This document shows positions 1-26,000 of a stretch of 64,000 nt of DNA, piece after piece. Under the pieces are notes generated by a model. That model saw only the letters and a program-made list of their open reading frames with translations, had not been told where the DNA came from and did not search any database. Source of the DNA: Eledone cirrhosa (taxonomy: Eukaryota); assembly GCA_964016885.1 (NCBI GenBank), contig OZ024740.1, positions 432,698,001-432,762,000 on the forward strand, given 5' to 3'. The position numbers and the translations under genes were made by a program. The first letter of the stretch is position 1. Each line of letters opens with the position of its first letter.

Positions 1-3000
1 ACACACTGTAAAGTGGTCATGTAGGTGTCACAACAAACAACATCCAGTCCACACAGTAAAGTGGTAATGTAGGTGTCACACAAAAGGTACCCAGTCCACA
101 CTGTAGAGTGGTCATGTAGGGGTCACAACAAAAGGTACTCAGTACACACTGTAAAGTGGTCATGTAGGTGTCACAACAAAAGCACCAAGTACACACTGTA
201 ATGTGGTCATGTAGGTGTCACAACAAACAACACACAGTACACACTGTAAAGTGGTCATGTAGGTGTCACAACAAAAGGTACCCAGCACACACTGTAAAGT
301 GGTCATGTAGGTGTCACAACAAAAAGTACCCAGCACACACGGTAAAGTGGTCATGTAGGTCTCACAACAAAAGGTACCCAGTACACACTGTAAAGTGGTT
401 ATGTAGGTGTCACAACAAAAAGTACCCAGCACACACTGTAAAGTGGTCATGTAGGTGTCACAACAAACACCACCCAGTCAACACTGTAAAGTGGTCAGCT
501 AGGAATCACAACAAAAAGTACCCAGCACACACGGTAAAGTGGTCATGTAGGTCTCACAACAAAAGGTACCCAGGACACACTGTAAAGTGGTCATGTAGGT
601 GTCACAACAAAAAGTACCCAGCACACACTGTAAAGTGGTCATGTAGGTGTCACAACAAACACCACCCAGTCAACACTGTAAAGTGGTCATGTAGGTGTCA
701 CAACAAACAACACCCAGTACACACTGTAAAGTGGTCATGTAGGTGTCACAACAAAAAGTACCCAGTGCACTCTGTAAATTGGTCATGTAGGTGTCACAAC
801 AAAAGGTACCCATCACACACTGTAAAGTGGTTATGTAGATGTCACAACAAAAGGTACCCAGTACACACTGTAAAGTGGTCATGTAGGTGTCACAACAAAA
901 GCACCCAGTACACACTGTAAAGTGGTCATGTAGGTGTCACAACAAAAAATACCCAGTCCACACTGTAGAGTGGTCATGTAGGGGTCACAACAAAAGGTAC
1001 TCAGTACACACTGTAAAGTGGTCATGTAGGTGTCACAACAAAAGCACCAAGTACACACTGTAAAGTGGTCATGTAGGTGTCACAACAAACAACACACAGT
1101 ACACACTGTAAAGTGGTCATGTAGGTGTCACAACAAAAGGTACCCAGCACACACTGTAAAGTGGTCATGTAGGTGTCACAACAAAAAGTACCCAGCACAC
1201 ACGGTAAAGTGCTCATGTAGGTTTCACAACAAAAGGTACCCAGTACACACTGTAAAGTGGTCATGTAGGTGTCACAAGAAAAAGTACCCAGCACACACTG
1301 TAAAGTGGTCATGTAGGTGTCACAACAAACACCACCCAGTCAACACTGTAAAGTGGTCAGCTAGGAATCACAAAAAAAAGTCCCCAGCACACATGGTGAA
1401 GTGGTCATGTAGGTGTCACAACAAACAACACCCAGTACACACTGTAAAGTGGTCATGTAGGTGTCACAACAAACAATACCCAGAACACACTGTAAAGTGG
1501 TCATGCAGGTGCCACAACAAAAAATACCCAGCACACACTGTAAAGTGTTCATGTAGGAGTCACAACGAACAACACCCAGTACACACTGTAAAGTGGTCAA
1601 GTAGGTGTCACAACAAAAGTTACGCAGTACACACTGTAAAGTGGTCATGTAGGTGTCACAACAAACAACATCCAGTCCACACTGTAAAGTGGTAATGTAG
1701 GTGTCACACAAAAGGTACCCAGTCCACACTGTAAAGTGGTCATGTAGGTGTCACAACAAAGGGTACCCAGTACACACTGTAAAGTGGTCATGTAGGTGTC
1801 AAAATAAAAAGTACTCAGAACAGTGTAAAGTGGTCATGTAGGTGTCACAACAAAAAATACCAAGTCCACACTGTAGAGTGGTCATGCAGGGGTCACAACA
1901 AAAGGTACTCAGCACACACTGTAAAGTGGTCATGTAGGTGTCACAACAAAAGGTACCCAGCACACACTGTAAAGTGGTTATGTAGATGTCACAACAAAAG
2001 GTACCCGGTACACACTGTAAGGTGGTCATGTAGGTGTCACAACAAAAAGTACCCAGCACACACTGTAAAGTGGTCATGTAGGTGTCAAAACAAAAAGTAC
2101 CCAGCACACACTGTAAAGTGGTCATGTAGGTGTCACAACAAAAAGTACCCAGTGCACTCTGTAAATTGGTCATGTAGGTGACACAACAAAAGGTACCCAG
2201 CACACACTGTAAAGTGGTTATGTAGATGTCACAACAAAAGGTACCCAGTACACACTGTAAAGTGGTCATGTAGGTGTCACAACAAAAGCACCCAGTACAC
2301 ACTGTATAGTGGTCATCTAGGGGTCACAACAAAAGGTACTCAGCACACACTGTAAAGTGGTCATGTAGATGTCACAACAAAAGGTACCCAGTACACACTG
2401 TAAAGTGGTCATGTAGGTGTCACAACAAAAGGAACCCAGCACACACTGTAAAGTGGTTATGTAGATGTCACAACAAAAGGTACCCAGTACACACTGTAAA
2501 GTGGTCAAGTAGGTGTCACAACAAAAACACCCAGTTCACACTGTAAAGTGGTCATGTGGGTGTCACAACAAACAACACCCAGTACACACTGTAAAGTGGT
2601 CAGGTAGGTGTCACAACAAAAGGTACCCAGCACACACTGTAAAGTGGTCATGTAGGTGTCACAACAAAAAGTACCCAGCACACACGGTAAAGTGGTCATG
2701 TAGGTGTCACAACAAAAAGTACCCAGTACACACGGTAAAGTGGTCATGTAGGTGTCACAACAAAAAGTACCCAGCACACACTGTAAAGTGGTCATGAAGG
2801 TGTCACAACAAACAATACCAAGAACACACTGTAAAGTGGTCATGCAGGTGTCACAACAAAAAATACCCAGCACACACTGTAAAGTGTTCATGTAGGAGTC
2901 ACAACAAACAACACCCAGTACACACTGTAAAGTGGTCAAGTAGGTGTCACAACAAAAGGTACGCAGTACACATTGTAAAGTGGTCATGTAGGTGTCACAA

Positions 3001-6000
3001 CAAAAAGTACTCAGCACACTGTAAATTGGTCATGTAGGTGTCACAACAAAAAGTACCCAGCACACACGGTAAAGTGGTCATGTAGGTCTCACAACAAAAG
3101 GTTCCCAGTACACGTTGTAAAGTGGTCATGTAGGTGTCACAACAAAAAGTACTCAGCACACTGTAAAGTGGTCATGTAGGTGTCACAACAGAAAATACCA
3201 AGTCCACACTGTAGAGTGATCATGTAGGGGTCACAACAAAAGGTATTCAGCACACACTGTAAAGTGGTCATGTAGGTGTCACAACAAAAGGTACCCAGCA
3301 CACACTGTAAAGTGGTCATGTAGGTGTCAAAACAAAAAGTACCCAGCACACACTGTAAAGTGGTCATGTAGGTGTCACAACAAAAAGTACCCAGTGCACT
3401 CTGTAAATTGGTCATGTAGGTGTCACAACAAAAGGTACTCAGTACACACTGTAAAGTGGTCATGTAGGTGTCACAACAAACAACATCCAGTCCACACAGT
3501 AAAGTGGTAATGTAGGTGTCACACAAAAGGTACCCAGTCCACACTGTAGAGTGGTCATGTAGGGGTCACAACAAAAGGTACTCAGTACACACTGTAAAGT
3601 GGTCATGTAGGTGTCACAACAAAAGCACCAAGTACACACTGTAATGTGGTCATGTAGGTGTCACAACAAACAACACACAGTACACACTGTAAAGTGGTCA
3701 TGTAGGTGTCACAACAAAAGGTACCCAGCACACACTGTAAAGTGGTCATGTAGGTGTCACAACAAAAAGTACCCAGCACACACGGTAAAGTGGTCATGTA
3801 GGTCTCACAACAAAAGGTACCCAGTACACACTGTAAAGTGGTTATGTAGGTGTCACAACAAAAAGTACCCAGCACACACTGTAAAGTGGTCATGTAGGTG
3901 TCACAACAAACACCACCCAGTCAACACTGTAAAGTGGTCAGCTAGGAATCACAACAAAAAGTACCCAGCACACACGGTAAAGTGGTCATGTAGGTGTCAC
4001 AACAAAAACACCCAGTTCACACTGTAAAGTGGTCATGTGGGTGTCACAACAAACAACACCCAGTACACACTGTAAAGTGGTCAGGTAGGTGTCACAACAA
4101 AAGGTACCCAGCACACACTGTAAAGTGGTCATGTAGGTGTCACAACAAAAAGTACCCAGCACACACGGTAAAGTGGTCATGTAGGTGTCACAACAAAAAG
4201 TACCCAGTACACACGGTAAAGTGGTCATGTAGGTGTCACAACAAAAAGTACCCAGCACACACTGTAAAGTGGTCATGAAGGTGTCACAACAAACAATACC
4301 AAGAACACACTGTAAAGTGGTCATGCAGGTGTCACAACAAAAAATACCCAGCACACACTGTAAAGTGTTCATGTAGGAGTCACAACAAACAACACCCAGT
4401 ACACACTGTAAAGTGGTCAAGTAGGTGTCACAACAAAAGGTACGCAGTACACATTGTAAAGTGGTCATGTAGGTGTCACAACAAAAAGTACTCAGCACAC
4501 TGTAAATTGGTCATGTAGGTGTCACAACAAAAAGTACCCAGCACACACGGTAAAGTGGTCATGTAGGTCTCACAACAAAAGGTTCCCAGTACACGTTGTA
4601 AAGTGGTCATGTAGGTGTCACAACAAAAAGTACTCAGCACACTGTAAAGTGGTCATGTAGGTGTCACAACAGAAAATACCAAGTCCACACTGTAGAGTGA
4701 TCATGTAGGGGTCACAACAAAAGGTATTCAGCACACACTGTAAAGTGGTCATGTAGATGTCACAACAAAAGGTACCCAGCACACACTGTAATGTGGTCAT
4801 GTAGGTGTCACAACAAACAACATCCAGTCCACACAGTAAAGTGGTAATGTAGGTGTCACACAAAAGGTACCCAGTCCACACTGTAGAGTGGTCATGTAGG
4901 GGTCACAACAAAAGGTACTCAGTACACACTGTAAAGTGGTCATGTAGGTGTCACAACAAAAGCACCAAGTACACACTGTAATGTGGTCATGTAGGTGTCA
5001 CAACAAACAACACACAGTACACACTGTAAAGTGGTCATGTAGGTGTCACAACAAAAGGTACCCAGCACACACTGTAAAGTGGTCATGTAGGTGTCACAAC
5101 AAAAAGTACCCAGCACACACGGTAAAGTGGTCATGTAGGTCTCACAACAAAAGGTACCCAGTACACACTGTAAAGTGCTTATGTAGGTGTCACAACAAAA
5201 AGTACCCAGCACACACTGTAAAGTGGTCATGTAGGTGTCACAACAAACACCACCCAGTCAACACTGTAAAGTGGTCAGCTAGGAATCACAACAAAAAGTA
5301 CCCAGCACACACGGTAAAGTGGTCATGTAGGTCTCACAACAAAAGGTACCCAGTACACACTGTAAAGTGGTCATGTAGGTGTCACAACAAAAAGTACCCA
5401 GCACACACTGTAAAGTGGTCATGTAGGTGTCACAACAAACACCACCCAGTCAACACTGTAAAGTGGTCATGTAGGTGTCACAACAAACAACACCCAGTAC
5501 ACACTGTAAAGTGGTCATGTAGGTGTCACAACAAAAAGTACCCAGTGCACTCTGTAAATTGGTCATGTAGGTGTCACAACAAAAGGTACCCATCACACAC
5601 TGTAAAGTGGTTATGTAGATGTCACAACAAAAGGTACCCAGTACACACTGTAAAGTGGTCATGTAGGTGTCACAACAAAAGCACCCAGTACACACTGTAA
5701 AGTGGTCATGTAGGTGTCACAACAAAAAATACCCAGTCCACACTGTAGAGTGGTCATGTAGGGGTCACAACAAAAGGTACTCAGTACACACTGTAAAGTG
5801 GTCATGTAGGTGTCACAACAAAAGCACCAAGTACACACTGTAAAGTGGTCATGTAGGTGTCACAACAAACAACACACAGTACACACTGTAAAGTGGTCAT
5901 GTAGGTGTCACAACAAAAGGTACCCAGCACACACTGTAAAGTGGTCATGTAGGTGTCACAACAAAAAGTACCCAGCACACACGGTAAAGTGCTCATGTAG

Positions 6001-9000
6001 GTTTCACAACAAAAGGTACCCAGTACACACTGTAAAGTGGTCATGTAGGTGTCACAAGAAAAAGTACCCAGCACACACTGTAAAGTGGTCATGTAGGTGT
6101 CACAACAAACACCACCCAGTCAACACTGTAAAGTGGTCAGCTAGGAATCACAAAAAAAAGTCCCCAGCACACATGGTGAAGTGGTCATGTAGGTGTCACA
6201 ACAAACAACACCCAGTACACACTGTAAAGTGGTCATGTAGGTGTCACAACAAACAATACCCAGAACACACTGTAAAGTGGTCATGCAGGTGCCACAACAA
6301 AAAATACCCAGCACACACTGTAAAGTGTTCATGTAGGAGTCACAACGAACAACACCCAGTACACACTGTAAAGTGGTCAAGTAGGTGTCACAACAAAAGT
6401 TACGCAGTACACACTGTAAAGTGGTCATGTAGGTGTCACAACAAACAACATCCAGTCCACACTGTAAAGTGGTAATGTAGGTGTCACACAAAAGGTACCC
6501 AGTCCACACTGTAAAGTGGTCATGTAGGTGTCACAACAAAGGGTACCCAGTACACACTGTAAAGTGGTCATGTAGGTGTCAAAATAAAAAGTACTCAGAA
6601 CAGTGTAAAGTGGTCATGTAGGTGTCACAACAAAAAATACCAAGTCCACACTGTAGAGTGGTCATGCAGGGGTCACAACAAAAGGTACTCAGCACACACT
6701 GTAAAGTGGTCATGTAGGTGTCACAACAAAAGGTACCCAGCACACACTGTAAAGTGGTTATGTAGATGTCACAACAAAAGGTACCCGGTACACACTGTAA
6801 GGTGGTCATGTAGGTGTCACAACAAAAAGTACCCAGCACACACTGTAAAGTGGTCATGTAGGTGTCAAAACAAAAAGTACCCAGCACACACTGTAAAGTG
6901 GTCATGTAGGTGTCACAACAAAAAGTACCCAGTGCACTCTGTAAATTGGTCATGTAGGTGACACAACAAAAGGTACCCAGCACACACTGTAAAGTGGTTA
7001 TGTAGATGTCACAACAAAAGGTACCCAGTACACACTGTAAAGTGGTCATGTAGGTGTCACAACAAAAGCACCCAGTACACACTGTATAGTGGTCATGTAG
7101 GTGTCAAAACAAAAAGTACGCAGTCCACACTGTAGAGTGGTCATCTAGGGGTCACAAGAAAAGGTACTCAGCACACACTGTAAAGTGGTCATGTAGGTGT
7201 CACAACAAAAATTACCCAGCACACACGGTAAAGTGGTCATGTAGGTGTCACAACAAAAGGTACCCAGTCCACACTGTAAAGTGGTCATGTAGGTGTCACA
7301 ACAAAAAGTACCAAGCACACACTGTAAAGTGGTCATGTAGGTGTCACAACAAACACCACCCAGTCAACACTGTAAAGTGGTCAGCTAGGAATCACAACAA
7401 AAAGTCCCCAGCACACACGGTGAAGTGGTCATGTAGGTGTCACAACAAACAACACCCAGTACACACTGTAAAGTGGTTATGTAGGTGTCACAACAAACAA
7501 TACCCAGAACACACTGTAAAGTGGTCATGCAGGAATCACAACAAAAAATACCCAGCACACACTGTAAAGTGTTCATGTAGGAGTCACAACAAACAACACC
7601 CAGTACACACTGTAAAGTGATCAAGTAGGTGTCACAACAAAAGGTACGCAGTACACACTGTAAAGTGGTCATGTAGGTGTCACAACAAAAAGTACCCAGA
7701 ACACACTAAAGTGGTCATGTAGGTGTCACAACAAAAAGTACCCAGAACACACTAAAGTGGTCATGTAGGTGTCACAACAAAAGGTACCCAGTACACACTG
7801 TAAAGTGGTCATGTAGGTGTCACAACAAAAGGTACCCAGCACACTCTGTAAAGTGGTTATGTAGATGTCACAACAAAAGGTACCCAGTACACACTGTAAA
7901 GTGGTCATGTAGGTGTCACAACAAAAGCATCCAGTACACACTGTAAAGTGGTCATGTAGGTGTCACAACAAACAACACCCAGTACACACTGTAAAGTGGT
8001 CAGGTAGGTGTCACAACAAAAGGCACCCAGCACACACTGTAAAGTGGTCATGTAGGTGTCACAACAAAAAGTACCCAGCACACACTGTAAAGTGGTCATG
8101 TAGGTGTCACAACAAAAGGTACCCAGTACACACTGTAAAGTGGTCATGTAGGTGTCACAACAAAAAGTACCCAGCACACACTATAAAGTGGTCATGTAGG
8201 TGTCACAAGAAACACCACCCAGTCAACACTGTAAAGTGGTCAGGTAGGAATCACAACAACAAGTCCCCAGCACACACGGTGAAGTGGTCATGTAGGTGTC
8301 ACAACAAAAAATACCCAGCACACACTGTAAAGTGTTCATGTAGGAGTCACAACAAACAACACCCAGTACACACTGTAAAGTGGTCATGTAGGTGTCACAA
8401 CAAAAGGTACCCAGCACACACTGTAAAGTGGTTATGTAGATGTCACAACAAAAGGTACCCAGTACACACTGTAAAGTGGTCAAGTAGGTGTCACAACAAA
8501 AACACCCAGTACACACTGTAAAGTGGTCATGTGGGTGTCACAACAAACAACACCCAGTACACACTGTAAAGTGGTCAGGTAGGTGTCACAACAAAAGGTA
8601 CCCAGCACACACTGTAAAGTGGTCATGTAGGTGTCAAAACAAAAAGTACCCAGCACACACTGTAAAGTGGTAATGTAGGTGTCACACAAAAGGTACCCAG
8701 TCCACACTGTAGAGTGGTCATGTAGGAGTCACAACAAAAGGTACTCAGTACACACTGTAAAGTGGTCATGTAGGTGTCACAACAAAAGCACCAAGTACAC
8801 ACTGTAATGTGGTCATGTAGGTGTCACAACAAACAACACACAGTCCACACTGTAGAGTGGTCATGTAGGGGTCACAACAAAAGGTACTCAGTACACACTG
8901 TAAAGTGGTCATGTAGGTGTCACAACAAAAGCACCAAGTACACACTGTAATGTGGTCATGTAGGTCTCACAACAAAAGGTACCCAGTACACACTGTAAAG

Positions 9001-12000
9001 TGGTCATGTAGGTGTCACAACAAAAAGTACCCAGCACACACTGTAAAGTGGTCATGTAGGTGTCACAACAAACACCACCCAGTCAACACTGTAAAGTGGT
9101 CATGTAGGTGTCACAACAAACAACACCCAGTACACACTGTAAAGTGGTCATGTAGGTGTCACAACAAAAAGTACCCAGTGCACTCTGTAAATTGGTCATG
9201 TAGGTGTCACAACAAAAGGTACCCATCACACACTGTAAAGTGGTTATGTAGATGTCACAACAAAAGGTACCCAGTACACACTGTAAAGTGGTCATGTAGG
9301 TGTCACAACAAAAGCACCCAGTACACACTGTAAAGTGGTCATGTAGGTGTCACAACAAAAAATACCCAGTCCACACTGTAGAGTGGTCATGTAGGGGTCA
9401 CAACAAAAGGTACTCAGTACACACTGTAAAGTGGTCATGTAGGTGTCACAACAAAAGCACCAAGTACACACTGTAAAGTGGTCATGTAGGTGTCACAACA
9501 AACAACACACAGTACACACTGTAAAGTGGTCATGTAGGTGTCACAACAAAAGGTACCCAGCACACACTGTAAAGTGGTCATGTAGGTGTCACAACAAAAA
9601 GTACCCAGCACACACGGTAAAGTGCTCATGTAGGTTTCACAACAAAAGGTACCCAGTACACACTGTAAAGTGGTCATGTAGGTGTCACAAGAAAAAGTAC
9701 CCAGCACACACTGTAAAGTGGTCATGTAGGTGTCACAACAAACACCACCCAGTCAACACTGTAAAGTGGTCAGCTAGGAATCACAAAAAAAAGTCCCCAG
9801 CACACATGGTGAAGTGGTCATGTAGGTGTCACAACAAACAACACCCAGTACACACTGTAAAGTGGTCATGTAGGTGTCACAACAAACAATACCCAGAACA
9901 CACTGTAAAGTGGTCATGCAGGTGCCACAACAAAAAATACCCAGCACACACTGTAAAGTGTTCATGTAGGAGTCACAACGAACAACACCCAGTACACACT
10001 GTAAAGTGGTCAAGTAGGTGTCACAACAAAAGTTACGCAGTACACACTGTAAAGTGGTCATGTAGGTGTCACAACAAACAACATCCAGTCCACACTGTAA
10101 AGTGGTAATGTAGGTGTCACACAAAAGGTACCCAGTCCACACTGTAAAGTGGTCATGTAGGTGTCACAACAAAGGGTACCCAGTACACACTGTAAAGTGG
10201 TCATGTAGGTGTCAAAATAAAAAGTACTCAGAACAGTGTAAAGTGGTCATGTAGGTGTCACAACAAAAAATACCAAGTCCACACTGTAGAGTGGTCACGC
10301 AGGGGTCACAACAAAAGGTACTCAGCACACACTGTAAAGTGGTCATGTAGGTGTCACAACAAAAGGTACCCAGCACACACTGTAAAGTGGTTATGTAGAT
10401 GTCACAACAAAAGGTACCCGGTACACACTGTAAGGTGGTCATGTAGGTGTCACAACAAAAAGTACCCAGCACACACTGTAAAGTGGTCATGTAGGTGTCA
10501 AAACAAAAAGTACCCAGCACACACTGTAAAGTGGTCATGTAGGTGTCACAACAAAAAGTACCCAGTGCACTCTGTAAATTGGTCATGTAGGTGACACAAC
10601 AAAAGGTACCCAGCACACACTGTAAAGTGGTTATGTAGATGTCACAACAAAAGGTACCCAGTACACACTGTAAAGTGGTCATGTAGGTGTCACAACAAAA
10701 GCACCCAGTACACACTGTATAGTGGTCATGTAGGTGTCACAACAAAAAGTACGCAGTCCACACTGTAGAGTGGTCATCTAGGGGTCACAAGAAAAGGTAC
10801 TCAGCACACACTGTAAAGTGGTCATGTAGGTGTCACAACAAAAATTACCCAGCACACACGGTAAAGTGGTCATGTAGGTGTCACAACAAAAGGTACCCAG
10901 TCCACACTGTAAAGTGGTCATGTAGGTGTCACAACAAAAAGTACCAAGCACACACTGTAAAGTGGTCATGTAGGTGTCACAACAAACACCACCCAGTCAA
11001 CACTGTAAAGTGGTCAGCTAGGAATCACAACAAAAAGTCCCCAGCACACACGGTGAAGTGGTCATGTAGGTGTCACAACAAACAACACCCAGTACACACT
11101 GTAAAGTGGTTATGTAGGTGTCACAACAAACAATACCCAGAACACACTGTAAAGTGGTCATGCAGGAATCACAACAAAAAATACCCAGCACACACTGTAA
11201 AGTGTTCATGTAGGAGTCACAACAAACAACACCCAGTACACACTGTAAAGTGGTCAAGTAGGTGTCACAACAAAAGGTACGCAGTACACACTGTAAAGTG
11301 GTCATGTAGGTGTCACAACAAAAAGTACCCAGAACACACTAAAGTGGTCATGTAGGTGTCACAACAAAAAGTACCCAGAACACACTAAAGTGGTCATGTA
11401 GGTGTCACAACAAAAGGTACCCAGTACACACTGTAAAGTGGTCATGTAGGTGTCACAACAAAAGGTACCCAGCACACTCTGTAAAGTGGTTATGTAGATG
11501 TCACAACAAAAGGTACCCAGTACACACTGTAAAGTGGTCATGTAGGTGTCACAACAAAAGCATCCAGTATACACTGTAAAGTGGTCATGTAGGTGTCACA
11601 ACAAACAACACCCAGTACACACTGTAAAGTGGTCAGGTAGGTGTCACAACAAAAGGCACCCAGCACACACTGTAAAGTGGTCATGTAGGTGTCACAACAA
11701 AAAGTACCCAGCACACACTGTAAAGTGGTCATGTAGGTGTCACAACAAAAGGTACCCGGTACACACTGTAAAGTGGTCATGTAGGTGTCACAACAAAAAG
11801 TACCCAGCACACACTATAAAGTGGTCATGTAGGTGTCACAAGAAACACCACCCAGTCAACACTGTAAAGTGGTCAGGTAGGAATCACAACAACAAGTCCC
11901 CAGCACACACGGTGAAGTGGTCATGTAGGTGTCACAACAAAAAATACCCAGCACACACTGTAAAGTGTTCATGTAGGAGTCACAACAAACAACACCCAGT

Positions 12001-15000
12001 ACACACTGTAAAGTGGTCATGTAGGTGTCACAACAAAAGGTACCCAGCACACACTGTAAAGTGGTTATGTAGATGTCACAACAAAAGGTACCCAGTACAC
12101 ACTGTAAAGTGGTCAAGTAGGTGTCACAACAAAAACACCCAGTACACACTGTAAAGTGGTCATGTGGGTGTCACAACAAACAACACCCAGTACACACTGT
12201 AAAGTGGTCAGGTAGGTGTCACAACAAAAGGTACCCAGCACACACTGTAAAGTGGTCATGTAGGTGTCAAAACAAAAAGTACCCAGCACACACTGTAAAG
12301 TGGTCATGTAGGTGTCACAACAAAAAGTACCCAGTGCACTCTGTAAATTGGTCATGTAGGTGTCACAACAAAAGGTACCCAGCACACACTGTAAAGTGGT
12401 TATGTAGATGTCAAAAAAAAGGTACCCAGTACACACTGTAAAGTGGTCATGTAGGTGTCACAACAAAAGCACCCAGTACACACTGTAAAGTGGTCATGTA
12501 GGTGTCACAACAAACAACACCCAGTACACACTGTAAAGTGGTCAGGTAGGTGTCACAACAAAAGGTACCCAGCACACACTGTAAAGTGGTCATGTAGGTG
12601 TCACAACAAAAAGTACCCAGCACACACGGTAAAGTGGTCATGTAGGTGTCACAACAAAAATTACCCAGTACACACGGTAAAGTGGTCATGTAGGTGTCAC
12701 AACAAAAAGTACCCAGCACACACTATAAAGTGGTCATGAAGGTGTCACAACAAACAATACCAAGAACACACTGTAAAGTGGTCATGCAGGTGTCACAACA
12801 AAAAATACCCAGCACACACTGTAAAGTGTTCATGTAGGAGTCACAACAAACAACACCCAGTACACACTGTAAATTGGTCATGTAGGTGTCACAACAAAAA
12901 GTACCCAGTCCACACTGTAAAGTGGTCAAGTAGGTGTCACAAGAAACACCACCCAGTCAACACTGTAAAAAGGTCAGGTAGGAATCAAAACAAAATGTCC
13001 CCAGCACACACGGTGAAGTGGTTATGTAGGTGTCACAACAAACAACACCCAGTACACACTGTAAAGTGGTCATGTAAGTGTCACAACAAACAACACCCAG
13101 AACACACTGTAAAGTGGTCATGCAGGTGTCAGTACAAAAAATACCCAGTACACACTGTAAAGTCTTCATGTAGGAGTCACAACAAACAATACCCAGTACA
13201 CACTGTAAAGTGGTCATGTAGGTGTCACAACAAAAGGTACCTAGCACACACTGTAAAGTGGTCATGTAGGTGTCAAAACAAAAAGTAACCAGCACACACT
13301 GTAAAGTGGTCATGTAAGTGTCACAACAAAAGGTACCCAGCACACACTGTAAAGTGGTCATGTAGCTGTCACAACAAAAGGTACCTAGCACACACTGTAA
13401 AGTGGTCATGTAGGTGTCAAAACAAGAAGTAACCAGCACACACTGTAAAGTGGTCATGTAGGTGTCACAACAAAAGGTACCCAGCACACACTGTAAAGTG
13501 GTTATGTAGATGTCTCAACAAAAGGTACCCGGTACACACTGTAAAGTGGTCATGTAGGTGTCACAACAAAAAATACCAAGTCCACACTGTAGAGTGGTCA
13601 TGTAGGTGTCAAAACAAAAAGTACCCAGCACACACTGTAAAGTGGTCATGTAGGTGTCACAACAAAAGGTACCCAGCACACACTGTAAAGTGGTTATGTA
13701 GATGTCACAACAAAAGGTACCCGGTACACACTGTAAAGTGGTCATGTAGGTGTCACAACAAAAAGTACCCAGCACACACTGTAAAGTGGTCATGTAGGTG
13801 TCAAAACAAAAAGTACCCAGCACACACTGTAAAGTGGTCATGTATGTGTCACAACAAAAAGTACCCAGTGCACTCTGTAAATTGGTCATGTAGGTGACAC
13901 AACAAAAGGTACCCAGCACACACTGTAAAGTGGTTATGTAGATGTCACAACAAAAGGTACCCAGTACACACTATAAAGTGGTCATGTAGGTGTCACAACA
14001 AAAGCACCCAGTACACACTGTATAGTGGTCATGTAGGTGTCACAACAAAAAGTACCCAGTCCACACTGTAGAGTGGTCATCTAGGGGTCACAAGAAAAGG
14101 TACTCAGCACACACTGTAAAGTGGTCATGTAGGTGTCACAACAAAAATTACCCAGCACACACGGTAAAGTGGTCATGTAGGTGTCACAACAAAAGGTACC
14201 CAGTCCACACTGTAAAGTGGTCATGTAGGTCTTACAACAAAAAGTACCCAGCACACACTGTAAAGTGGTCATGTAGGTGTCACAACAAACACCACCCAGT
14301 CAACACTGTAAAGTGGTCAGCTAGGAATCACTACAAAAAGTCCCCAGCACACACGGTGAAGTGGTCATGTAGGTGTCACAACAAACAACACCCAGTACAC
14401 ACTGTAAAGTGGTTATGTAGGTGTCACAACAAACAATACCCAGAACACACTGTAAAGTGGTCATGCAGGAATCACAACAAAAAATACCCAGCACACACTG
14501 TAAAGTGTTCATGTAGGAGTCACAACAAACAACACCCAGTACACACTGTAAAGTGGTCAAGTAGGTGTCACGACAAAAGGTACGCAGTACACACTGTAAA
14601 GTGATCATGTAGGTGTCACAACAAAAAGTACTCAGCACATTGTAATGTGGTCATGTAGGTGTCACAACAAAAAGTACCCAGTCCACACTATAGAGTGGTC
14701 ATCTAGGGGTCACAACAAAAGGTACTCAGCACACACTGTAAAGTGGTCATGTAGATGTCACAACAAAAGGTACCCAGTACACACTGTAAAGTGGTCATGT
14801 AGGTGTCACAACAAAAGGTACCCAGCACACTCTGTAAAGTGGTTATGTAGATGTCACAACAAAAGGTACCCAGTACACACTGTAAAGTGGTCATGTAGGT
14901 GTCACAACAAAAGCATCCAGTACACACTGTAAAGTGGTCATGTAGGTGTCACAACAAACAACACCCAGTACACACTGTAAAGTGGTCAGGTAGGTGTCAC

Positions 15001-18000
15001 AACAAAAGGTACCCAGCACACACTGTAAAGTGGTCATGTAGGTGTCACAACAAACAACACCCAGTACACACTGTAAAGTGGTCATGTAGGTGTCACAACA
15101 AAAAGTACCCAGTACACACTGTAAAGTGGTCATGTAGGTGTCACAAGAAACACCACCCAGTCAACACTGTAAAGTGGTCAGGTAGGAATCACAACAACAA
15201 GTCCCCAGCACACACGGTGAAGTGGTCATGTAGGTGTCACAACAAAAAATACCCAGCACACACTGTAAAGTGTTCATGTAGGAGTCACAACAAACAACAC
15301 CCAGTACACACTGTAAAGTGGTCATGTAGGTGTCACAACAAAAGGTACCCAGCACACACTGTAAAGTGGTTATGTAGATGTCACAAAAAAAGGTACCCAG
15401 TACACACTGTAAGGTGGTCATGTAGGTGTCACAACAAAAAGTACCCAGCACACACTGTAAAGTGGTCATGAAGGTGTCACAACAAAAAGTACCCAGTACA
15501 CACTGTAAAGTGGTCATGTAGGTGTCGCAACAAAAGATAACCAGCACACACTGTAAAGTGGTAATGTAGGTGTCACAACAAAAAGTACCCAGTACACACT
15601 GTAAAGTGGTCATGTAGGTGTCACAACAAAAAGTACCCAGAACACACTGTAAAGTGGTCACGTAGGAGGCACAACAAAAAGTACCCAGCACACACTGTAA
15701 AGTGGTCATGTAGGTGTCACAACAAAAAGTACCCAGTACACACTGTAAAGTGGTCATGTAGGTGTCACAACAAAAAGTACCCATTCCACACTGTAAAGTG
15801 GTCATGTAGGTGACAACAAAAAGTACCCAGTCCACACTGTAAAGTGGTCATGTAGGTGTCACAACAAAAAGTACCCAGTCCACACTGTAACGTGGTAATG
15901 TAGGTTCGCAACAAAACGTACCCAGCACACACTGTAAAGTGGTCATGTAGGTGTCACAACAAAAAGTACCCAGAGCACACTAAAGTGGTCATGTAGGTGT
16001 CACAACAGAAGCACCCAGTACACACTGTAAAGTGGTCATGTAGGTGGAACAACAAAAAGTACCCAGCACACACTGTAAAGTGGTCATGTAGGTGTCACAA
16101 CAAAAAGTACCCACAACACACTGTAAAGTAGTCATGTAGGTGTCACAACAAAAAGCACCCAGTACACACTGTAAAGTGGTCATGTAGGTGTCACAACCAA
16201 AAGTACCCATTCCACACTGTAAAGTGGTCATGTAGGTGACAACAAAAAGTACCCAGTCCACACTGTAAAGTGGTCATGTAGGTGTCACAACAAAAAGTAC
16301 CCAGAACACACTGTAAAGTGGTCATGTAGGTGTCACAACAAAAAGCACCCAGTACACACTGTAAAGTGGTCATGTAGGTGTCACAACCAAAAGTACCCAT
16401 TCCACACTGTAAAGTGGTCATGTAGGTGACAACAAAAAGTACCCAGTCCACACTGTAAAGTGGTCATGTAGGTGTCACAACAAAAAGTACCCAGTCCACA
16501 CTGTAAAGTGGTCATGTAGGTGTCTTAACACAAGACACCCAGTCAACTCTGTAAAGTGGTCATGGAGGTGTCACAACAAAAAGCACTCAGCCCACACTGT
16601 AAAGTGGTCATGTAGCAAAAGGTACCCAGTACACACTGTAAAGTGGTCAGGTAGGTATCACAACAAAAGGTAACCAGCACACACTGTAAAGTGGTCATGT
16701 AGGTGTCACAACAAACAACACCCAGCACACACTGTAAAGTGGTCATGTAGTTGTCACAACAAAAGGTACCCAGTGAACTCTGTAAAGTAGTCATGTAGGT
16801 GTCACAACAAACAACATCCAGTCCATTCTGTAAAATGGTCCTGTAGGTGTCACAACAAACAACACCCAGCACACACTCTAAAGTGGTCATGTAGGTGTCA
16901 CAACAAAAACACCCAGCACACACTGTAAAGTGGTCATGTAGGTGTCAACAAAAAAACCCAGCACACTGTAAAGTGGTCATGTAGGTGTCACAACAAAAAG
17001 TACCCAGCCCACACTGTAAAGTGGTCATGTAGGTGTCACAACAAAAAGTACCCAGCACACACTGTAAAGTGGTCATGTAGGTGTTACAACAAAAGGTACC
17101 CAGCCCACACTGTAAAGTGGTCATGTAGGTGTTACAACAAAAGGTACCCAGCCCTCACTGTAAAGTGGTCATGTAGGTGTCACAACAAAAGGTACCCAGC
17201 CCACACTGTAAAGTGGTCATGTAGGTGTCACAACAAAAAGTACCCAGCACACACTGTAAAGTGGTCATGTAGGTGTCACAACAAAAGGTACCCAGCCCAC
17301 ACTGTAAAGTGGTCATGTAGGTGTCACAACAAAAAGTACCCAGCACACACTGTAAAGTGGTCATGTAGGTGTCACAACAAAAAGTACCCAGCACACACTG
17401 TAAAGTGGTCATGTAGGTGTCACAACGAACAACAGCCAGCACACACTGTAAAGTGGTCATGTAGTTGTCACAACAAAAGTACCCAGTCCACATTGTAAAG
17501 TGGTCATGTAGGTGTCACAACAAAAGGTACCCAGTGAACTCTGTAAAGTAGTCATGTAGGTGTCACAACAAACAACATCCAGTCCATTCTGTAAAATGGT
17601 CCTGTAGGTGTCACAACAAACAACACCCAGCACACACTGTAAAGTGGTCATGTAGGTGTCAACAAAAAGTACCCAGCACACTGTAAAGTGGTCATGTAGG
17701 TGTCACAACAAAATGTACCCAGCACACACTGTAAAGTGGTCATGTAGGTGTCACAACAAAAGGTACCCAGCCCACACTGTAAAGTGGTCATGTAGGTGTC
17801 ACAACAAAAAGTACCCAGTACACACTGTAAAGTGGTCATGTAGGTCTCACAACAAAAAGTACCCGGCACACACTGTAAAGAGGTCATGTAGGTGTCACAA
17901 CAAAAAGTACCCAGCACACACTGTAAAGTGGTTATGTAGGTTTCACAACAAACAACACCCAGTACACACTGTAAAGTGGTCATGTAGGTGTCACAACAAA

Positions 18001-18506
18001 AGGTACCCAGTCCACACTGTAAAGTGGTCATGTAGGTGTCACAACAAAAGGTACCCAGCTCACACTGTAAAGTGGTCATGTAGGTGTCACAACAAAAGGT
18101 ACCCAGTACACACTGCAAAGTGGTCATGTAGGTCTCACAACAAAAGGTACCCAGCACACACTGTAAAGTGTTCATGTTAGTCCCACAACAAATAACACCC
18201 AGCACACACTGTAAAGTGGTCATGTAGGTGTCACAACAAACAACACCCAGCACACACTGTAAAGTGGTTATGTAGTTGTCACAACAAAAGTACCCACTCC
18301 ACATTGTAAAGTGGTTATGTAGGTGTCACAACAAAAGGCACCCAGTCCACACTGTAAAGTGGTCATGTAGGTGTCACAACAAAAGGTACCCAGTCCACAC
18401 TGTAAAGTGGTCATGTAGGTGTCACAACAAAAGGTACCCAGTCCACACTGTAAAGTAGTCATGTAGGTGTCACAACAAACAACATCCAGCAAACACTGTA
18501 AATGTG
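1..18506 (+). repeat. 48-bp tandem repeat array (minisatellite/satellite), ~385-390 head-to-tail monomers, continuing beyond the left edge
   Basis: Consensus ACACACTGTAAAGTGGTCATGTAGGTGTCACAACAAAA(A/G)GTACCCAG(C/T) (48 nt), repeated continuously. There are frequent 47- and 46-bp variants, with most variation in the ~12 nt after CACAAC. ORF track periodicity is 16 aa. Confidence 0.99.
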
Positions 18507-18564
18507 ACTTGTCTCACAAGGCACCTCATCTATGCCGTGCTAAAGTGTCAAAATGGACGTTAAA
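18496..18564 (+). mobile_element. Degenerate, internally deleted retroposon (RTE-like) 3' terminus closing the 48-bp array
   Basis: The last monomer ends CTGTAAATGTG, as at 19189-19199. It is followed by CTTGTCTCA...ATCTATGCCGTGCTA...GTGTCAAAATGGACGTTAAA, collinear with CTTGCCTCA...GTCTAACCCATGCTA...GTGTGGAAGATAGACGTTAAA at 19280-19339 (anchor spacing 48 vs 51 nt). Confidence 0.65.
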
Positions 18565-18791
18565 CGGTATATAATCCGTAGATCTGGAAAAACATGAAGA
18601 GTAGCAACCATTATTGTTAAATGAGAAGAGTATTTAGTAGTTTAGTTGCATGTGATGTCTGAGGACAAAGGGTGTTGAATGAATGTAGCCAAACATATTA
18701 ATGGAACTTATCAAGTGTAGAAAGATTACTAACATAACTTTGATAAGCCTTCAACTTACAACGTTTACCCCTCAAAGATCAATAAATCAAA

Positions 18792-18980
18792 TACATAAAA
18801 AAGTGCAGGGCAATAAAAATTGATGGAAGTTACGGAGTAGGTAGACCCAGAAAAACCTGGGACAACATCATAAAGTCCGACATTGCACACTTACACCTCT
18901 CTAAGACAATGTCACTGGATCGAGATCTTTGGCGGCACGCAGTATTACAGAAGACCTGCTTTCCCTATGTACAAAGTTAA
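18792..18980 (+). pseudogene. RTE LINE ORF2 (reverse transcriptase protein) C-terminal fragment, non-functional
   Basis: Hand translation gives YIKKCRAIKIDGSYGVGRPRKTWDNIIKSDIAHLHLSKTMSLDRDLWRHAVLQKTCFPYVQS*. The G-x-R/G-x-GRP-R/K-x-x-W...D-R-x-x-W-R pattern is characteristic of RTE/BovB-type ORF2 C-termini. There is an in-frame stop upstream at 18783-18785 and no start codon at the beginning of the fragment. Confidence 0.85.
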
Positions 18981-19016
18981 CCTAGAGTCAGTAGGCCCCT
19001 CCTATCCAAATATACA

Positions 19017-19038
19017 CCCCAACCCACTACCCACTCCC
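19017..19038 (-). other. Canonical G-quadruplex-forming motif (minus strand) / C-rich tract in the RTE 3' UTR
   Basis: Minus strand reads GGGAGTGGGTAGTGGGTTGGGG: four G3+ runs with loops of 3, 4 and 2 nt, plus a fifth G3 run at 19049-19051. Folding is predicted only. Confidence 0.5.
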
Positions 19039-19056
19039 ACCAACACCACCCTTTCT

Positions 19057-19200
19057 CTGTAAAGTTATGTTGGTACCTCAACATCCAGTCCAAACTAATG
19101 AGATTGTGTAGGTGTCACGACAAAAAAAAAACACACCACGCTGTAATGTGGCTGTGTAGGTAACACGGTAAAAAGCTCCCAGTCCACACTGTAAATGTGG
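19057..19200 (+). repeat. 2-3 degenerate copies of the 48-bp satellite monomer inside the RTE 3' UTR
   Basis: TGTAGG occurs at 19107 and 19155, and CTGTAA at 19141 and 19189 (both 48 nt apart). 19155-19195 matches the array consensus at 33/41 ungapped and 19107-19126 at 19/20. A weaker copy starts at about 19057. Confidence 0.85.
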
Positions 19201-19339
19201 TTGGTGTTAGGAAGAGCATCCAGCCGTAGAAAACATGCCAGATAGTCCTATATGAGCAAGACACGGTCACCTGACCAATCTTGCCTCAAGTGGGACAATT
19301 CCCGTCTAACCCATGCTAGTGTGGAAGATAGACGTTAAA

Positions 19340-19354
19340 TGATGATGATGATGA
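19340..19354 (+). repeat. (TGA)5 microsatellite tail of the RTE element
   Basis: GACGTTAAA is immediately followed by TGATGATGATGATGA. Confidence 0.9.
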
Positions 19355-19723
19355 CAATGTTATTGAGACAGCTGACTCAAGACAAATATTGATTTGCTGA
19401 CAATTCAAAAGAAATCAATATCAATTTTTAACAAAATATTAGATACAATTCATATAATAGAGTATAGCTGACTTAATCGACCATGTATATCACCTAGATG
19501 TTTATAGTTTGGCTTTGGAAAGCTGAAAGGTGATTCATGTGGGATTTTACCTTAGAACAATGAGCTATGAAGTATCTAGTCTCCCCTTCTACTGGGTTGA
19601 CAATGTCAACTTTACAAGAATCATTAATAGAAATTTTTTTTAAATGTTCATATAAACATGATTTAAGACGGACACAAGATCAAGATTACTGGCAAGTTGC
19701 TGCACTAGAAAAGTGTCACTTAC

Positions 19724-19870
19724 CAGCATGAACACTGTAAAGCTAAAGGTAGATGTGGCAATGGTGAGAGAGTAGAGACTACATGCAGTGGAGAGCTGTC
19801 CTTGTAACCTGCAGTTGGGTGTCATAATGAAACAGACCCAGTAGCCTCTGTCAAGTGTTGGATGAATAAA
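19724..19870 (-). CDS. Candidate internal coding exon (147 bp, phase 0/0) of an unidentified gene: FIHPTLDRGYWVCFIMTPNCRLQGQLSTACSLYSLTIATSTFSFTVFML
   Basis: On the minus strand there is an acceptor ctctttaccctatattgtctcAG| at 19872/19871 and a consensus donor CTG|GTAAGTG at 19723. Exactly one frame is open across the 147 nt, and it lies within the 92-aa ORF 19640..19918. The segment is more GC-rich than the AT-rich flanks. No homology was recognised. Confidence 0.45.
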
Positions 19871-19932
19871 CTGAGACAATATAGGGTAAAGAGTGCCCTT
19901 TAATCCTTTCAAAGACATGATAACCCCTCTAG

Positions 19933-19978
19933 TGTTGGCACTACAATAAAATACACCTAGTACACTCTGTAAAGTAGT
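19933..19978 (+). repeat. Solo degenerate 48-bp monomer / RTE 3' UTR relic
   Basis: TGTTGGCACTACAATAAAATACACCTAGTACACTCTGTAAAGTAGT matches the array consensus at 34/46 without gaps. It continues TAGTGATT, weakly like the UTR continuation TGGTGTTAG. Confidence 0.7.
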
Positions 19979-20076
19979 TAGTGATTGATTGAAGATAATA
20001 TAGAGCAGAAAAGACTATTCAGTCATGATAAAAACATATTTCTTGTGTTGATGTCATTTTGTGAAAAAGGCTAACA

Positions 20077-23000
20077 AAGAATGGAGACTTGATATGTAAC
20101 AGAACCACAGAAGCAGTAAGAATGGAGACTTGATATGTAACAGAACCACAGAAGCAGTAAGAATGGAGACTTGATATGTAACAGAACCACAGAAGCAATA
20201 AGAATGGAGACTTGATATGTGACAGAACCACAGAAGCAGTAAGAATGGAGACTTGATATGTAACAGAACCACAGAAGCAATAAGAATGGAGACTTGATAT
20301 GTGACAGAACCACAGAATCAGTAAGAATGGAGACTTCATGTGACAGAACCAGATAAGCAGTAAGAATGGAGACTTGATATGTGACAGAACCACAGAAGCA
20401 GTAAGAATGGAGACTTGATATGTGACAGAACCACAGAATCAGTAAGAATGGAGACTTGATATGTGACAGAACCACAGAAGCAGTAAGAATGGAGACTTGA
20501 TATGTGACAGAACCACAGAAGCAGTAAGAATGTAGACTTGATATGTGACAGAACCTCAGAAGCAGTAAGAATGGACACTTGATATGTGACAGAACCACAG
20601 AAGCAGTAAGAATGGAGACTTGATATGTGACAGAACCACGGAAGCAGTAAGAATGGAGACTTGATATGTGACAGAACCACAGAAGCAGTAAGAATGGAGA
20701 CTTGATATGTGACAGAACCACAGAAGCAGTAAGAATGGAGACTTGATATGTGACAGAACCACACAATCAGTAAGAATGGAGACTTGATATGTGACAGAAC
20801 CACAGAAGCAGTAAGAATGGAGACTTGATATGTGACAGAACCATGCAATCATTAAGAATGGAGACTTGATATGTGACAGAACCACAGAAGCAGTAAGAAT
20901 GGAGACTTGATATGTGACAGAACCACAGAATCAGTAAGAATGGAGACTTGATATGTGACAGAACCACAGAAGCAGTAAGAATGGAGACTTGATATGTGAC
21001 AGAACCACAGAATCATTAAGAATGGAGACTTGATATGTGACAGAACCACAGAAGCAGTAAGAATGGAGACTTGATATGTGACAGAACCACAGAATCAGTA
21101 AACATGGAGACTTGATATGTGACAGAACCACAGAAGCAGTAAGAATGGAGACTTGATATGTGACAGAACCACAGAAGCAGTAAGAATGGAGACTTGATAT
21201 GTGACAGAACCACAGAAGCAGTAAGAATGGAGACTTGATATGTGACAGAACCACAGAAGCAGTAAGAATGGAGACTTGATATGTGACAGAACCATGCAAT
21301 CATTAAGAATGGTGACTTGATATGTGACAGAACCACAGAAGCAGTAAGAATGGAGACTTGATATGTGACAGAACCACAGAAGCAGTAAGAATGGAGACTT
21401 GATATGTGACAGAACCATGCAATCATTAAGAATGGAGACTTGATATGTGACAGAACCACAGAAGCAGTAAGAATGGAGACTTGATATGTGACAGAACCAC
21501 AGAAGCACTAAGAATGGAGACTTGATATGTGACAGAACCACAGAAGCAGTAAGAATGGAGACTTGATATGTGACAGAACCACAGAATCAGTAAACATGGA
21601 GACTTGATATGTGACAGAACCACAGAAGCAGTAAGAATGGAGACTTGATATGTGACAGAACCACAGAAGCACTAAGAATGGAGACTTGATATGTGACAGA
21701 ACCACACAATCAGTAAGAATGGAGACTTGATATGTGACAGAACCACAGAATCAGTAAGAATGGAGACTTGATATGTGACAGAACCACAGAAGCAGTAAGA
21801 ATGGAGACTTGATATGAGACAGAACCACAGAATCAGTAAGAATGGAGACTTGATATGTGACAGAACCACAGAATCAGTAAAAATGGAGACTTGATATGCG
21901 ACAGAACCACATAAGCAATAAGAATGGAGACTTGATATGTGACAGAACCACACAATCAGTAAGAATGGAGACTTGATATGTGACAGAACCACAGAATCAG
22001 TAAGAATGGAGACTTGATATGTGACAGAACCACAGAAGCAGTAAGAATGGAGACTTGATATGAGACAGAACCACAGAATCAGTAAGAATGGAGACTTGAT
22101 ATGTGACAGAAACACAGAAGCAGTAAGAATGGAGACTTGATATGTAACAGAACCACAGAAGCAGTAAGAATGGAGACTTGATATGTAACAGAACCACAGA
22201 ATCAGTAAGAATGGAGACTTGATATGTGACAGAACCACAGAAGCACTAAGAATGGAGACTTGATATGTGACAGAACTACAGAATCAGTAAGAATGGAGAC
22301 TTGATATGTGACAGAACCACAGAAGCAGTAAGAATGGAGACTTGATATGTGACAGAACCACAGAAGCAGTAAGAATGGACACTTGATATGTGACAGAACC
22401 ACAGAATCAGTAAGAATGGAGACTTGATATGTGACAGAACTACAGAATCAGTAAGAATGGAGACTTGATATGTGACAGAACCACAGAAGCAGTAAGAATG
22501 GAGACTTGATATGTGACAGAACCACAGAAGCAGTAAGAATGGAGACTTGATATGTGACAGAACCACAGAAGCAGTAAGAATGGACACTTGATATGTGACA
22601 GAACCACAGAAGCAGTAAGAATGGACACTTGATATGTGACAGAACCACAGAATCAGTAAGAATGGAGACTTGATATGTGACAGAACTACAGAACCAGTAA
22701 GAATTGAGACTTGATATGTGACAGAACCACAGAATCAGTAAGAATGGAGACTTGATATGTGACAGAACCACAGAAGCAGTAAGAATGGAGACTTGATATG
22801 TAACAGAACCACAGAAGCAATAAGAATGGAGACTTGATATGTGACAGAACCACAGAATCAGTAAGAATGGAGACTTCATGTGACAGAACCACAGAAGCAG
22901 TAAGAATGGACACTTGATATGTGACAGAACCACAGAAGCAGTAAGAATGGAGACTTGATATGTGACAGAACCACAGAATCAGTAAGAATGGAGACTTGAT

Positions 23001-26000
23001 ATGTGACAGAACCACAGAAGCAGTAAGAATGGAGACTTGATATGTGACAGAACCACAGAAGCAGTAAGAATGTAGACTTGATATGTGACAGAACCTCAGA
23101 AGCAGTAAGAATGGACACTTGATATGTGACAGAACCACAGAAGCAGTAAGAATGGAGACTTGATATGTGACAGAACCACAGAAGCAGTAAGAATGGAGAC
23201 TTGATATGTGACAGAACCACAGAAGCAGTAAGAATGGAGACTTGATATGTGACAGAACCACAGAAGCAGTAAGAATGGAGACTTGATATGTGACAGAACC
23301 ACACAATCAGTAAGAATGGAGACTTGATATGTGACAGAACCACAGAAGCAGTAAGAATGGAGACTTGATATGTGACAGAACCATGCAATCATTAAGAATG
23401 GAGACTTGATATGTGACAGAACCACAGAAGCAGTAAGAATGGAGACTTGATATGTGACAGAACCACAGAATCAGTAAGAATGGAGACTTGATATGTGACA
23501 GAACCACAGAAGCAGTAAGAATGGAGACTTGATATGTGACAGAACCACAGAATCATTAAGAATGGAGACTTGATATGTGACAGAACCACAGAAGCAGTAA
23601 GAATGGAGACTTGATATGTGACAGAACCACAGAATCAGTAAACATGGAGACTTGATATGTGACAGAACCACAGAAGCAGTAAGAATGGAGACTTGATATG
23701 TGACAGAACCACAGAAGCAGTAAGAATGGAGACTTGATATGTGACAGAACCACAGAAGCAGTAAGAATGGAGACTTGATATGTGACAGAACCACAGAAGC
23801 AGTAAGAATGGAGACTTGATATGTGACAGAACCATGCAATCATTAAGAATGGTGACTTGATATGTGACAGAACCACAGAAGCAGTAAGAATGGAGACTTG
23901 ATATGTGACATAACCACAGAAGCAGTAAGAATGGAGACTTGATATGTGACAGAACCATGCAATCATAAAGAATGGAGACTTGATATGTGACAGAAACACA
24001 GAAGCAGTAAGAATGGAGACTTGATATGTGACAGAACCACAGAAGCACTAAGAATGGAGACTTGATATGTGACAGAACCACAGAAGCAGTAAGAATGGAG
24101 ACTTGATATGTGACAGAACCACAGAATCAGTAAACATGGAGACTTGATATGTGACAGAACCACAGAAGCAGTAAGAATGGAGACTTGATATGTGACAGAA
24201 CCACAGAAGCACTAAGAATGGAGACTTGATATGTGACAGAACCACACAATCAGTAAGAATGGGGACTTGATATGTGACAGAACCACAGAATCAGTAAGAA
24301 TGGAGACTTGATATGTGACAGAACCACAGAAGCAGTAAGAATGGAGACTTGATATGAGACAGAACCACAGAATCAGTAAGAATGGAGACTTGATATGTGA
24401 CAGAACCACAGAATCAGTAAAAATGGAGACTTGATATGCGACAGAACCACATAAGCAATAAGAATGGAGACTTGATATGTGACAGAACCACACAATCAGT
24501 AAGAATGGAGACTTGATATGTGACAGAACCACAGAATCAGTAAGAATGGAGACTTGATATGTGACAGAACCACAGAAGCAGTAAGAATGGAGACTTGATA
24601 TGAGACAGAACCACAGAATCAGTAAGAATGGAGACTTGATATGTGACAGAACCACAGAAGCAGTAAGAATGGAGACTTGATATGTAACAGAACCACAGAA
24701 GCAGTAAGAATGGAGACTTGATATGTAACAGAACCACAGAATCAGTAAGAATGGAGACTTGATATGTGACAGAACCACAGAAGCACTAAGAATGGAGACT
24801 TGATATGTGACAGAACTACAGAATCAGTAAGAATGGAGACTTGATATGTGACAGAACCACAGAAGCAGTAAGAATGGAGACTTGATATGTGACAGAACCA
24901 CAGAAGCAGTAAGAATGGACACTTGATATGTGACAGAACCACAGAATCAGTAAGAATGGAGACTTGATATGTGACAGAACTACAGAATCAGTAAGAATGG
25001 AGACTTGATATGTGACAGAACCACAGAAGCAGTAAGAATGGAGACTTGATATGTGACAGAACCACAGAAGCAGTAAGAATGGACACTTGATATGTGACAG
25101 AACCACAGAAGCAGTAAGAATGGACACTTGATATGTGACAGAACCACAGAATCAGTAAGAATGGAGACTTGATATGTGACAGAACCACAGAACCAGTAAG
25201 AATGGAGACTTGATATGTGACAGAACCACAGAATCAGTAAGAATGGAGACTTGATATGTGACAGAAGCACAGAACCAGTAAGAATGGAGACTTGATATGT
25301 GACAGAACCACAGAATCAGTAAGAATGGAGACTTGATATGTGACAGAACCACAGAACCAGTAAGAATGGAGACTTGAAATGTGACAGAACCACAGAAGCA
25401 GTAAGAATGGACACTTGATATGTGACAGAACCACAGAAGCAGTAAGAATGGAGACTTGATATGTGACAGAACCACAGAAGCAGTAAGAATGGAGACTTGA
25501 TATGTGACAGAACCACAGAATCAGTAAGAATGGAGACTTGATATGTGACAGAACCACAGAAGCAGTAAGAATGGAGACTTGATATGTGACAGAACCACAG
25601 AATCAGTAAACATGGAGACTTGATATGTGACAGAACCACAGAATCAGTAAGAATGGAGACTTGATATGTGACAGAACCACATAAGCAGTAAGAATGGAGA
25701 CTTGATATGTGACAGAACCACAGAAGCAGTAAGAATGGAGACTTGGTATGTGACAGAACCACAGAATCAGTAGGAATGGAGACTTGGTATGTGACAGAAC
25801 CACATAAGCAGTAAGAATGGAGACTTGATATGTGACAGAACCACAGAAGCAGTAAGAATGGAGACTTGATATGTGACAGAACCACACAATCAGTAAGAAT
25901 GGAGACTTGATATGTGACAGAACCACAGAAGCAGTAAGAATGGAGACTTGATATGTGACAGAACCACAGAAGCAGTAAGAATGGAGACTTGGTATGTGAC

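Follow-up and report, generated by a model that had tools for sequence, protein, structure and literature searches.

A 69-kb satellite array in an Eledone cirrhosa ENTR1 intron that probably grew from the 3' untranslated repeat of an RTE-type LINE

Satellites born from repeats in the 3' untranslated region (UTR) of transposable elements are known, and those of Ogre, HeT-A and cetacean L1 are treated in the accessible parts of two publications (PMC9659126, PMC12692304). According to the same partial texts, PisTR-A and other satellites come from the hypervariable 3' UTR of Ogre long terminal repeat (LTR) retrotransposons (Macas et al. 2009; Vondrak et al. 2020; via PMC9659126, PMC12692304). Such an origin is usually argued by sequence similarity alone. 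We analysed 64,000 nucleotides of the Eledone cirrhosa genome (G000:C1:432,698,001-432,762,000; source genome 3.0 Gb), referred to here as the window, which begin inside a 48-bp satellite array in intron 1 of the gene ENTR1. We consider it probable, at roughly 0.8, that this array arose by local expansion of the 3' UTR repeat in an old, 5'-truncated RTE-type long interspersed nuclear element (LINE) of a subfamily designated B.

Within the window the array covers positions 1-18502 (387 copies, 87% matches), and the original prediction had accordingly put its size at 18.5 kb. Followed leftward, it reaches G000:C1:432,647,171 and measures 69,332 bp and 1,450 units, about 3.7 times its portion in the window. 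The units comprise 359 distinct monomers with a mean identity of 92% to the consensus. The prediction had also stated that the array ends in a terminal variant specific to the element's UTR and then runs into a degenerate element 3' end, and both statements held. The terminal variant (18496-18506) occurs twice in the window and in 1 of the 1,450 array units, namely the last. Behind it, the tail at 18507-18566 aligned with the 3' end of a neighbouring element with a score of 47 (shuffles 24 +/- 3.5, maximum 41), a value that 2,000 dinucleotide shuffles never reached. This 60-nt tail does not follow the terminal unit directly: a deletion with a 2-nt microhomology has removed about 81 nt of the 3' end that the element would have there. 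The features of the window are as follows.

1..18502, plus strand: right-hand 18.5 kb of the 48-bp array; the whole array spans G000:C1:432,647,171-432,716,502
18455..18506, plus strand: final array unit; its closing letters (18496-18506) are the terminal variant of the family, present nowhere else in the array
18505..18566, plus strand: degraded 3' end of a LINE, of the subfamily B type, preceded by the ~81-nt deletion with 2-nt microhomology; no (GAT)n
18566..18794, no strand: single-copy host intron DNA; 18727-18746 is the empty-site match in a distant relative
18795..19354, plus strand: independent 5'-truncated copy of subfamily A, with open reading frame (ORF) C-terminus, UTR units, tail and (GAT)n
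20077..64000, plus strand: unrelated 41-bp satellite that shares the intron, extends to C1:432,890,028 and totals 171,952 bp
1..64000, minus strand: ENTR1 intron 1, which spans the entire window (C1:432,647,100-432,899,391, ~252.3 kb, GT-AG, phase 1)

The neighbouring element consists of an ORF C-terminus (18795-18977, encoding the C-terminal 61 amino acids of a LINE ORF), a UTR with 2-3 degenerate units at about 19050-19195, a tail and (GAT)n. Units of the array monomer at 48-nt spacing on the same strand had been reported in this UTR, and we recovered them there (anchors 19141 and 19189; 33/41 and 19/20 matches). The last of them (19148-19195) agreed with the commonest letter of each array column at 37 of 48 positions. 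When four array units were aligned with the neighbour's UTR the score was 140, compared with 46 +/- 7 (maximum 83) in 1,000 shuffles.

Dispersed copies of the family were collected by genome searches, for which counts refer to the best-scoring 40 candidates of each search together with fetched stretches. With 18795-19354 as the query there were 8,227 first-look candidates, and the 39 best other matches were 88-92% identical to it. All 30 subfamily A loci (neighbour included) carry degenerate units, two in 24 copies and three in 6, which are 77% identical to the array monomer. Searching the genome with the array end led to other elements, with near-perfect units. From these, subfamily B was defined as 30 copies out of 3,664 candidates, found with the tail of one locus (L064) alone. 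At least one unit is present in 23 of the 30 B copies: seven have none, 16 have 1-3, six have 4-11 and one has at least 30, although the counting walk halts at insertions and deletions and may undercount. Mean identity of the B units is 84%, reaching 94%. The copy in the highest class holds about 147 units followed by an intact tail. A monomer-like unit as a family trait, expected beforehand, was thus found in both subfamilies.

Two copies keep the parts together. At C14:44.040 Mb, ORF end, UTR, about 33 units and tail stand in a row; at C18:6.329 Mb, ORF end, UTR, 22 units and tail are followed by duplicated array-plus-tail blocks. In the latter region (G000:C18:6,308,035-6,329,261; L126, L127, L139) a block made up of flank, array (7-92 units) and tail recurs, a higher-order duplication of the whole element end. 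Throughout the family, the unit stands in variable number immediately ahead of the fixed terminal unit and tail, and the copies whose ends were inspected finish in (GAT)n. Truncation at the 5' end is the rule among B copies: 24 of 30 lack ORF2 within 1.5 kb upstream and begin at varying points, and 6 run into ORF2 on the same strand.

Upstream of unit-bearing UTRs the reverse transcriptase (RT) domain RVT_1 was detected at L142:7360-7980 (upstream of the B copy L091, E 1e-21) and at L140:8650-9699 (E 1e-25), and in the ORF of one copy the RT is followed by a PHD finger. The many homologues of the ORF (55-61% identical) are 1,000-1,100 amino acids long and contain PF03372 and PF00078, often also PF00628; none is named RTE. 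Pfam gave no match on the ENTR1 exon or on two ORF C-termini, the short piece 18795-18977 among them, and no intact ORF was seen among the family copies looked at in this genome. By its architecture the source element fits the RTE clade; the label RTE-type is provisional and also draws on the original prediction and on a C-terminal motif regarded as typical of the clade. Two LINE ORF ends on different contigs (L140:6286-6876 and L036:5685-6275) are 98.8% identical, which suggests that a subfamily was active recently.

CpG positions indicate the direction of transfer. At the two CpG sites of the unit, the counts of CG/CA/TG are 31/8/20 and 44/7/9 in A units (n = 60), 4/26/23 and 15/25/17 in B units (n = 64), and 10/1292/0 and 1/1355/0 in the array (n = 1,450), where CA is near-fixed. 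Methylated CpG decays chemically to CA or TG, and CG is the ancestral state. Because this state is still mixed with its products in the dispersed copies and the array holds CA, we infer that the unit passed from the element to the satellite.

The orthologous site was followed in contigs of relatives. The closer relative (run X5, organism B, ~95% identical over the exon) has unit-like sequence at the point where the array starts, with 17 of 21 letters matching by eye before the contig stops 55 letters on; this unit has diverged from the array units. The presence of a unit at the same spot suggests that the seed of the array predates the split from the closer relative. In more distant relatives (run X7 of organism D and run X10 of organism E, less than 90% alike) the left flank is followed by no unit. 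The X7 contig instead continues into sequence matching window positions 18727-18746, a region of single-copy DNA; none of 100 shuffles reached this match, the pattern having been composed after the match was known. Array and tail accordingly lie between two flanks that adjoin each other in the outgroup.

The interior of the array carries block duplications: 758 of the 1,450 units belong to identical runs, which are 15-123 units long and recur at lags of 31-193 units. Identical runs of at least 15 units are absent from the first 85 and the last 172 units. Such a pattern, with static edges, would be expected if unequal exchange or template switching had recently duplicated whole blocks. Taken together, the array may have formed in four steps. 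Before the closer relative split off, target-primed reverse transcription would have inserted, in antisense orientation to ENTR1, a copy cut short inside its own repeats. A CpG-decayed unit variant would then have taken over the small array, and unequal exchange or break-repair template switching would have amplified blocks of 31-193 units in the interior while sparing both edges. Finally, the tail would have decayed neutrally and lost about 81 nt. Amplification confined to the interior would explain why terminal unit and tail survive.

The tail supports a B-type seed. Its mean identity is 78% to subfamily B (maximum 84%) and 69% to the neighbour, and of 13 diagnostic columns nine are B-like, two A-like (one of them an end gap) and two neither. 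The sample of B copies was drawn with the L064 tail, which had been chosen after scoring 60 against the array tail. The A-versus-B comparison of tails is therefore partly circular, a point that opens the list of observations weighing against growth in place from a B copy. The unit counts in B copies are free of this circularity, as units were excluded from the L064-tail query. Decay has brought the array tail to 78% identity with B, compared with 86% among the B copies themselves, and the tail has no (GAT)n run. A scan for target-site duplications gave only 5-6 nt AT-rich matches, none of them at both junctions; the array copy is an old insertion with a decayed end. To the left of the array there is no ORF and no upstream UTR, the flank being ENTR1 intron 1. 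An unrelated left flank had been named beforehand as speaking against the origin from the element. The flank is indeed unrelated, but this does not refute the origin, because 5' truncation is usual in B. In the relatives, the X5 contig does not fix the number of units at the closer relative's site; the empty-site match is a single 20-nt stretch in the 30-letter loose end of one contig, and about 180 bp of the flanks of this species are unaccounted for in X7. Lastly, two short arrays on C22 and C26 and a large one on C1132 end without a tail, and the array monomers resemble the C1132 units (0.94) more closely than those of short B copies (0.91), in samples of unequal size.

The C1132 array (G000:C1132:74,431-151,401; L128-L136, L149) is 77 kb long with about 1,600 units. 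It sits in antisense orientation in an intron of a phospholipase B-like gene, with an exon found on either side, and starts about 45 bp from the acceptor. The array on C1 and this one, the two largest seen, are both intronic in protein-coding genes; with n = 2 this sets no rule. As the C1132 monomers are the closest to those of the C1 array, exchange between arrays is conceivable, if unlikely. The LINE copy would in that event have been a landing site only, and the present monomer type would have come from a large array elsewhere, through ectopic gene conversion or integration of circular DNA, before being amplified. Besides the tail-less arrays, three observations point this way. Both arrays have CA at the two CpG sites and the same two variant classes at unit columns 23-31; their nearest monomers are 0.94-0.96 identical; and in the first unit of the closer relative the first CpG site has decayed the other way. 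However, short, tailed B copies hold the same variants, and shared CA could easily be parallel because CpG decay has only two outcomes. Moreover, the arrays differ at columns 35-38, where one state is found in 1,413 of 1,602 C1132 units and in 115 of 1,450 C1 units.

The seed could also have been a non-autonomous, RTE-dependent short interspersed nuclear element (SINE) with this 3' end rather than a truncated LINE. The array copy has no 5' end and hence is not directly typed, and RTE-related cephalopod SINEs are described in the accessible part of one paper (PMC5786205). Nevertheless, six of 30 B copies enter ORF2 in the same orientation and the others begin at different points. ARAGORN reported no tRNA upstream of 29 of 30 B tails, the single call wrapping the sequence end and not being credible. 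With no credible tRNA head in the 30 copies, the SINE option of the original prediction gained no support, and we regard it as very unlikely.

Quite as improbable is the combination of unrelated causes, in which array and tail are separate events or the length is mostly an assembly artefact. The longest identical run, 123 units (~5.9 kb), and other identical blocks could be assembler duplications or other assembly errors. On the other hand, the terminal variant lies exactly at the last of the 1,450 units, its monomers come in the many different forms counted above, hundreds of units belong to no identical run, and a contig from run X1 (probably the assembly's own sample) crosses the left junction without differences.

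Scarcely credible is descent from the neighbouring subfamily A copy by local duplication and expansion: in its favour, the neighbour lies 230 bp away on the same strand, and a same-strand tail within 800 bp is roughly a 1-in-20 event given the density of near-complete superfamily tails (31 in 244,131 bp of unselected flank from 59 rows, ~1 per 8 kb), but the neighbour's diagnostic unit variant, present in 22 of 60 A units, occurs in 0 of 1,450 array units. This absence, the tail identities and columns given above, and the unique, ancestral intron DNA lying between array and neighbour indicate that the neighbour is a cousin of the array seed and not its parent. It is an independent A copy, as near to dispersed copies as stated above (88-92%), and so the earlier notion of an unexpanded ancestor preserved beside the array had to be given up. 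What we keep of the proposed origin is the monomer as the 3' UTR repeat of the LINE superfamily, with array and tail probably one old, 5'-truncated insertion.

The flanking gene was identified by its identity to Octopus bimaculoides ENTR1 (89%) and to an Argonauta ENTR1-like protein (86%), which places the source among the octopods. ENTR1 is a broadly used trafficking gene. The locus lies near the end of the largest contig, with exon 1 at C1:432,899,393-605, and the array begins abruptly about 70 bp from the acceptor of exon 2 (minus strand, outside the window). Together the two satellites fill 96% of intron 1. A 4,066-nt contig from run X4 (same species label, other sample, same study) joins exons 2 and 3, and on its other side exon 2 is followed by the end of exon 1, the latter in a loose end compared by eye. 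Because introns are skipped, the contig is judged transcript-like, and since it joins the exons, intron 1 is spliced, provided that this animal carries the arrays. The satellite-filled intron is tolerated and spliced, and nothing indicates a host function.

Several further observations concern the intron and its surroundings. On the minus (ENTR1 sense) strand, each unit in 1-18502 reads as a short pyrimidine run ending in CAG. The motif resembles a weak splice acceptor and recurs some 1,450 times, yet the transcript-like contig uses the normal acceptor. The 41-bp satellite from 20077 onward (171,952 bp, 4,194 units, 94% matches) is unrelated to the 48-bp unit. It may be locus-specific, because all 150 listed matches out of 366 in the genome search were at this locus. 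The spacer of 1.6 kb between the 48-bp and 41-bp arrays contains short, decayed unit-like fragments at about 19725-19745 and 19950-19980. An Rfam scan of 18300-20200 yielded no known RNA family, with one chance-level match only (16 bits, cut-off 65). Small arrays of related 48-bp units were found just upstream of ENTR1 (G000:C1:432,900,841-432,901,422, 12 copies) and in intron 2 (~432,645,460-432,645,720, ~5 copies). The last two ENTR1 exons (G000:C1:431,855,552-431,857,467) are 760 kb off on the opposite strand, with a 200-N gap between (~432,604,000), which is likely a scaffolding inversion, or else a real one.

More broadly, octopod RTE-type LINEs might act as a satellite factory, scattering thousands of 48-bp seeds of which antisense, intronic ones near an acceptor reach 70-80 kb and leave genes such as ENTR1 and the phospholipase B-like gene filled with satellite yet splicing. 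We put this forward as a rather doubtful extension; if true, it would link transcription to satellite birth and explain part of octopod intron gigantism. For the array itself, one genome holds a range of stages (0-11, ~33, ~147, 1,450 and ~1,600 units), and a single locus keeps the terminal unit, the tail, the empty site of an outgroup, the seed in a closer relative and the CpG signature of direction. With these stages and this record, the rates and triggers of expansion become testable across orthologous introns. The general phenomenon being known, the value lies in a clean animal LINE case and not in a new principle.

A 252-kb intron that is 96% satellite is here spliced in an ordinary gene. 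Broad use of that gene, and the tracing of part of the filler to a LINE UTR, set it apart from the giant introns of Drosophila Y-linked fertility genes. The likeness is that splicing persists although the intron is very large and filled with repeats, as far as the consulted portions of two papers describe it (PMC6508613, PMC11207136).

Our literature search, with most subscription papers, Repbase and supplements outside it, found no satellite derived from an RTE element or an octopod LINE, and the accessible text of one review does not contain the term RTE (PMC9659126). Among octopods, RTE-2_OV of Octopus vulgaris is alike in being a LINE of the RTE clade with one ORF of ~1,100 amino acids (endonuclease, RT, zinc finger) and a 3' microsatellite (PMC9115989, seen in part). 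It differs in that its 3' UTR is mostly microsatellite, and the words "tandem" and "satellite" do not appear in the main text as accessible; RTE-2_OV, compared here by its description, may be another family (PMC9115989). The repeat library of an O. vulgaris annotation, known to us in part, may contain the present LINE family (PMC13282606).

Squamate SINE-derived satellites (sSat) share the gradation from few to many units, the distinct leading and trailing monomers and the greater uniformity of longer arrays, according to the accessible text (PMC10702118). They are, however, built of SINE pieces of 70-290 nt in up to hundreds of copies and are likely subtelomeric, whereas the arrays described here have 48-nt units, reach ~1,600 copies and are intronic (PMC10702118). 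The 18HT repeat of Drosophila, derived from HeT-A/TART, and the L1-derived common cetacean satellite likewise come from the 3' non-coding part of non-LTR elements, as the same partly accessible review reports (PMC9659126). In contrast to these, the present unit is already tandem in the element, and terminal unit, tail and empty site are readable at one locus. Closest in kind is PisTR-A with Ogre, again as known from partial texts: a short 3' UTR tandem repeat is spread by transposition and forms long arrays at some sites. Unlike Ogre, the carrier here is an animal non-LTR LINE, mostly 5'-truncated, and its two largest arrays lie in introns of protein-coding genes.

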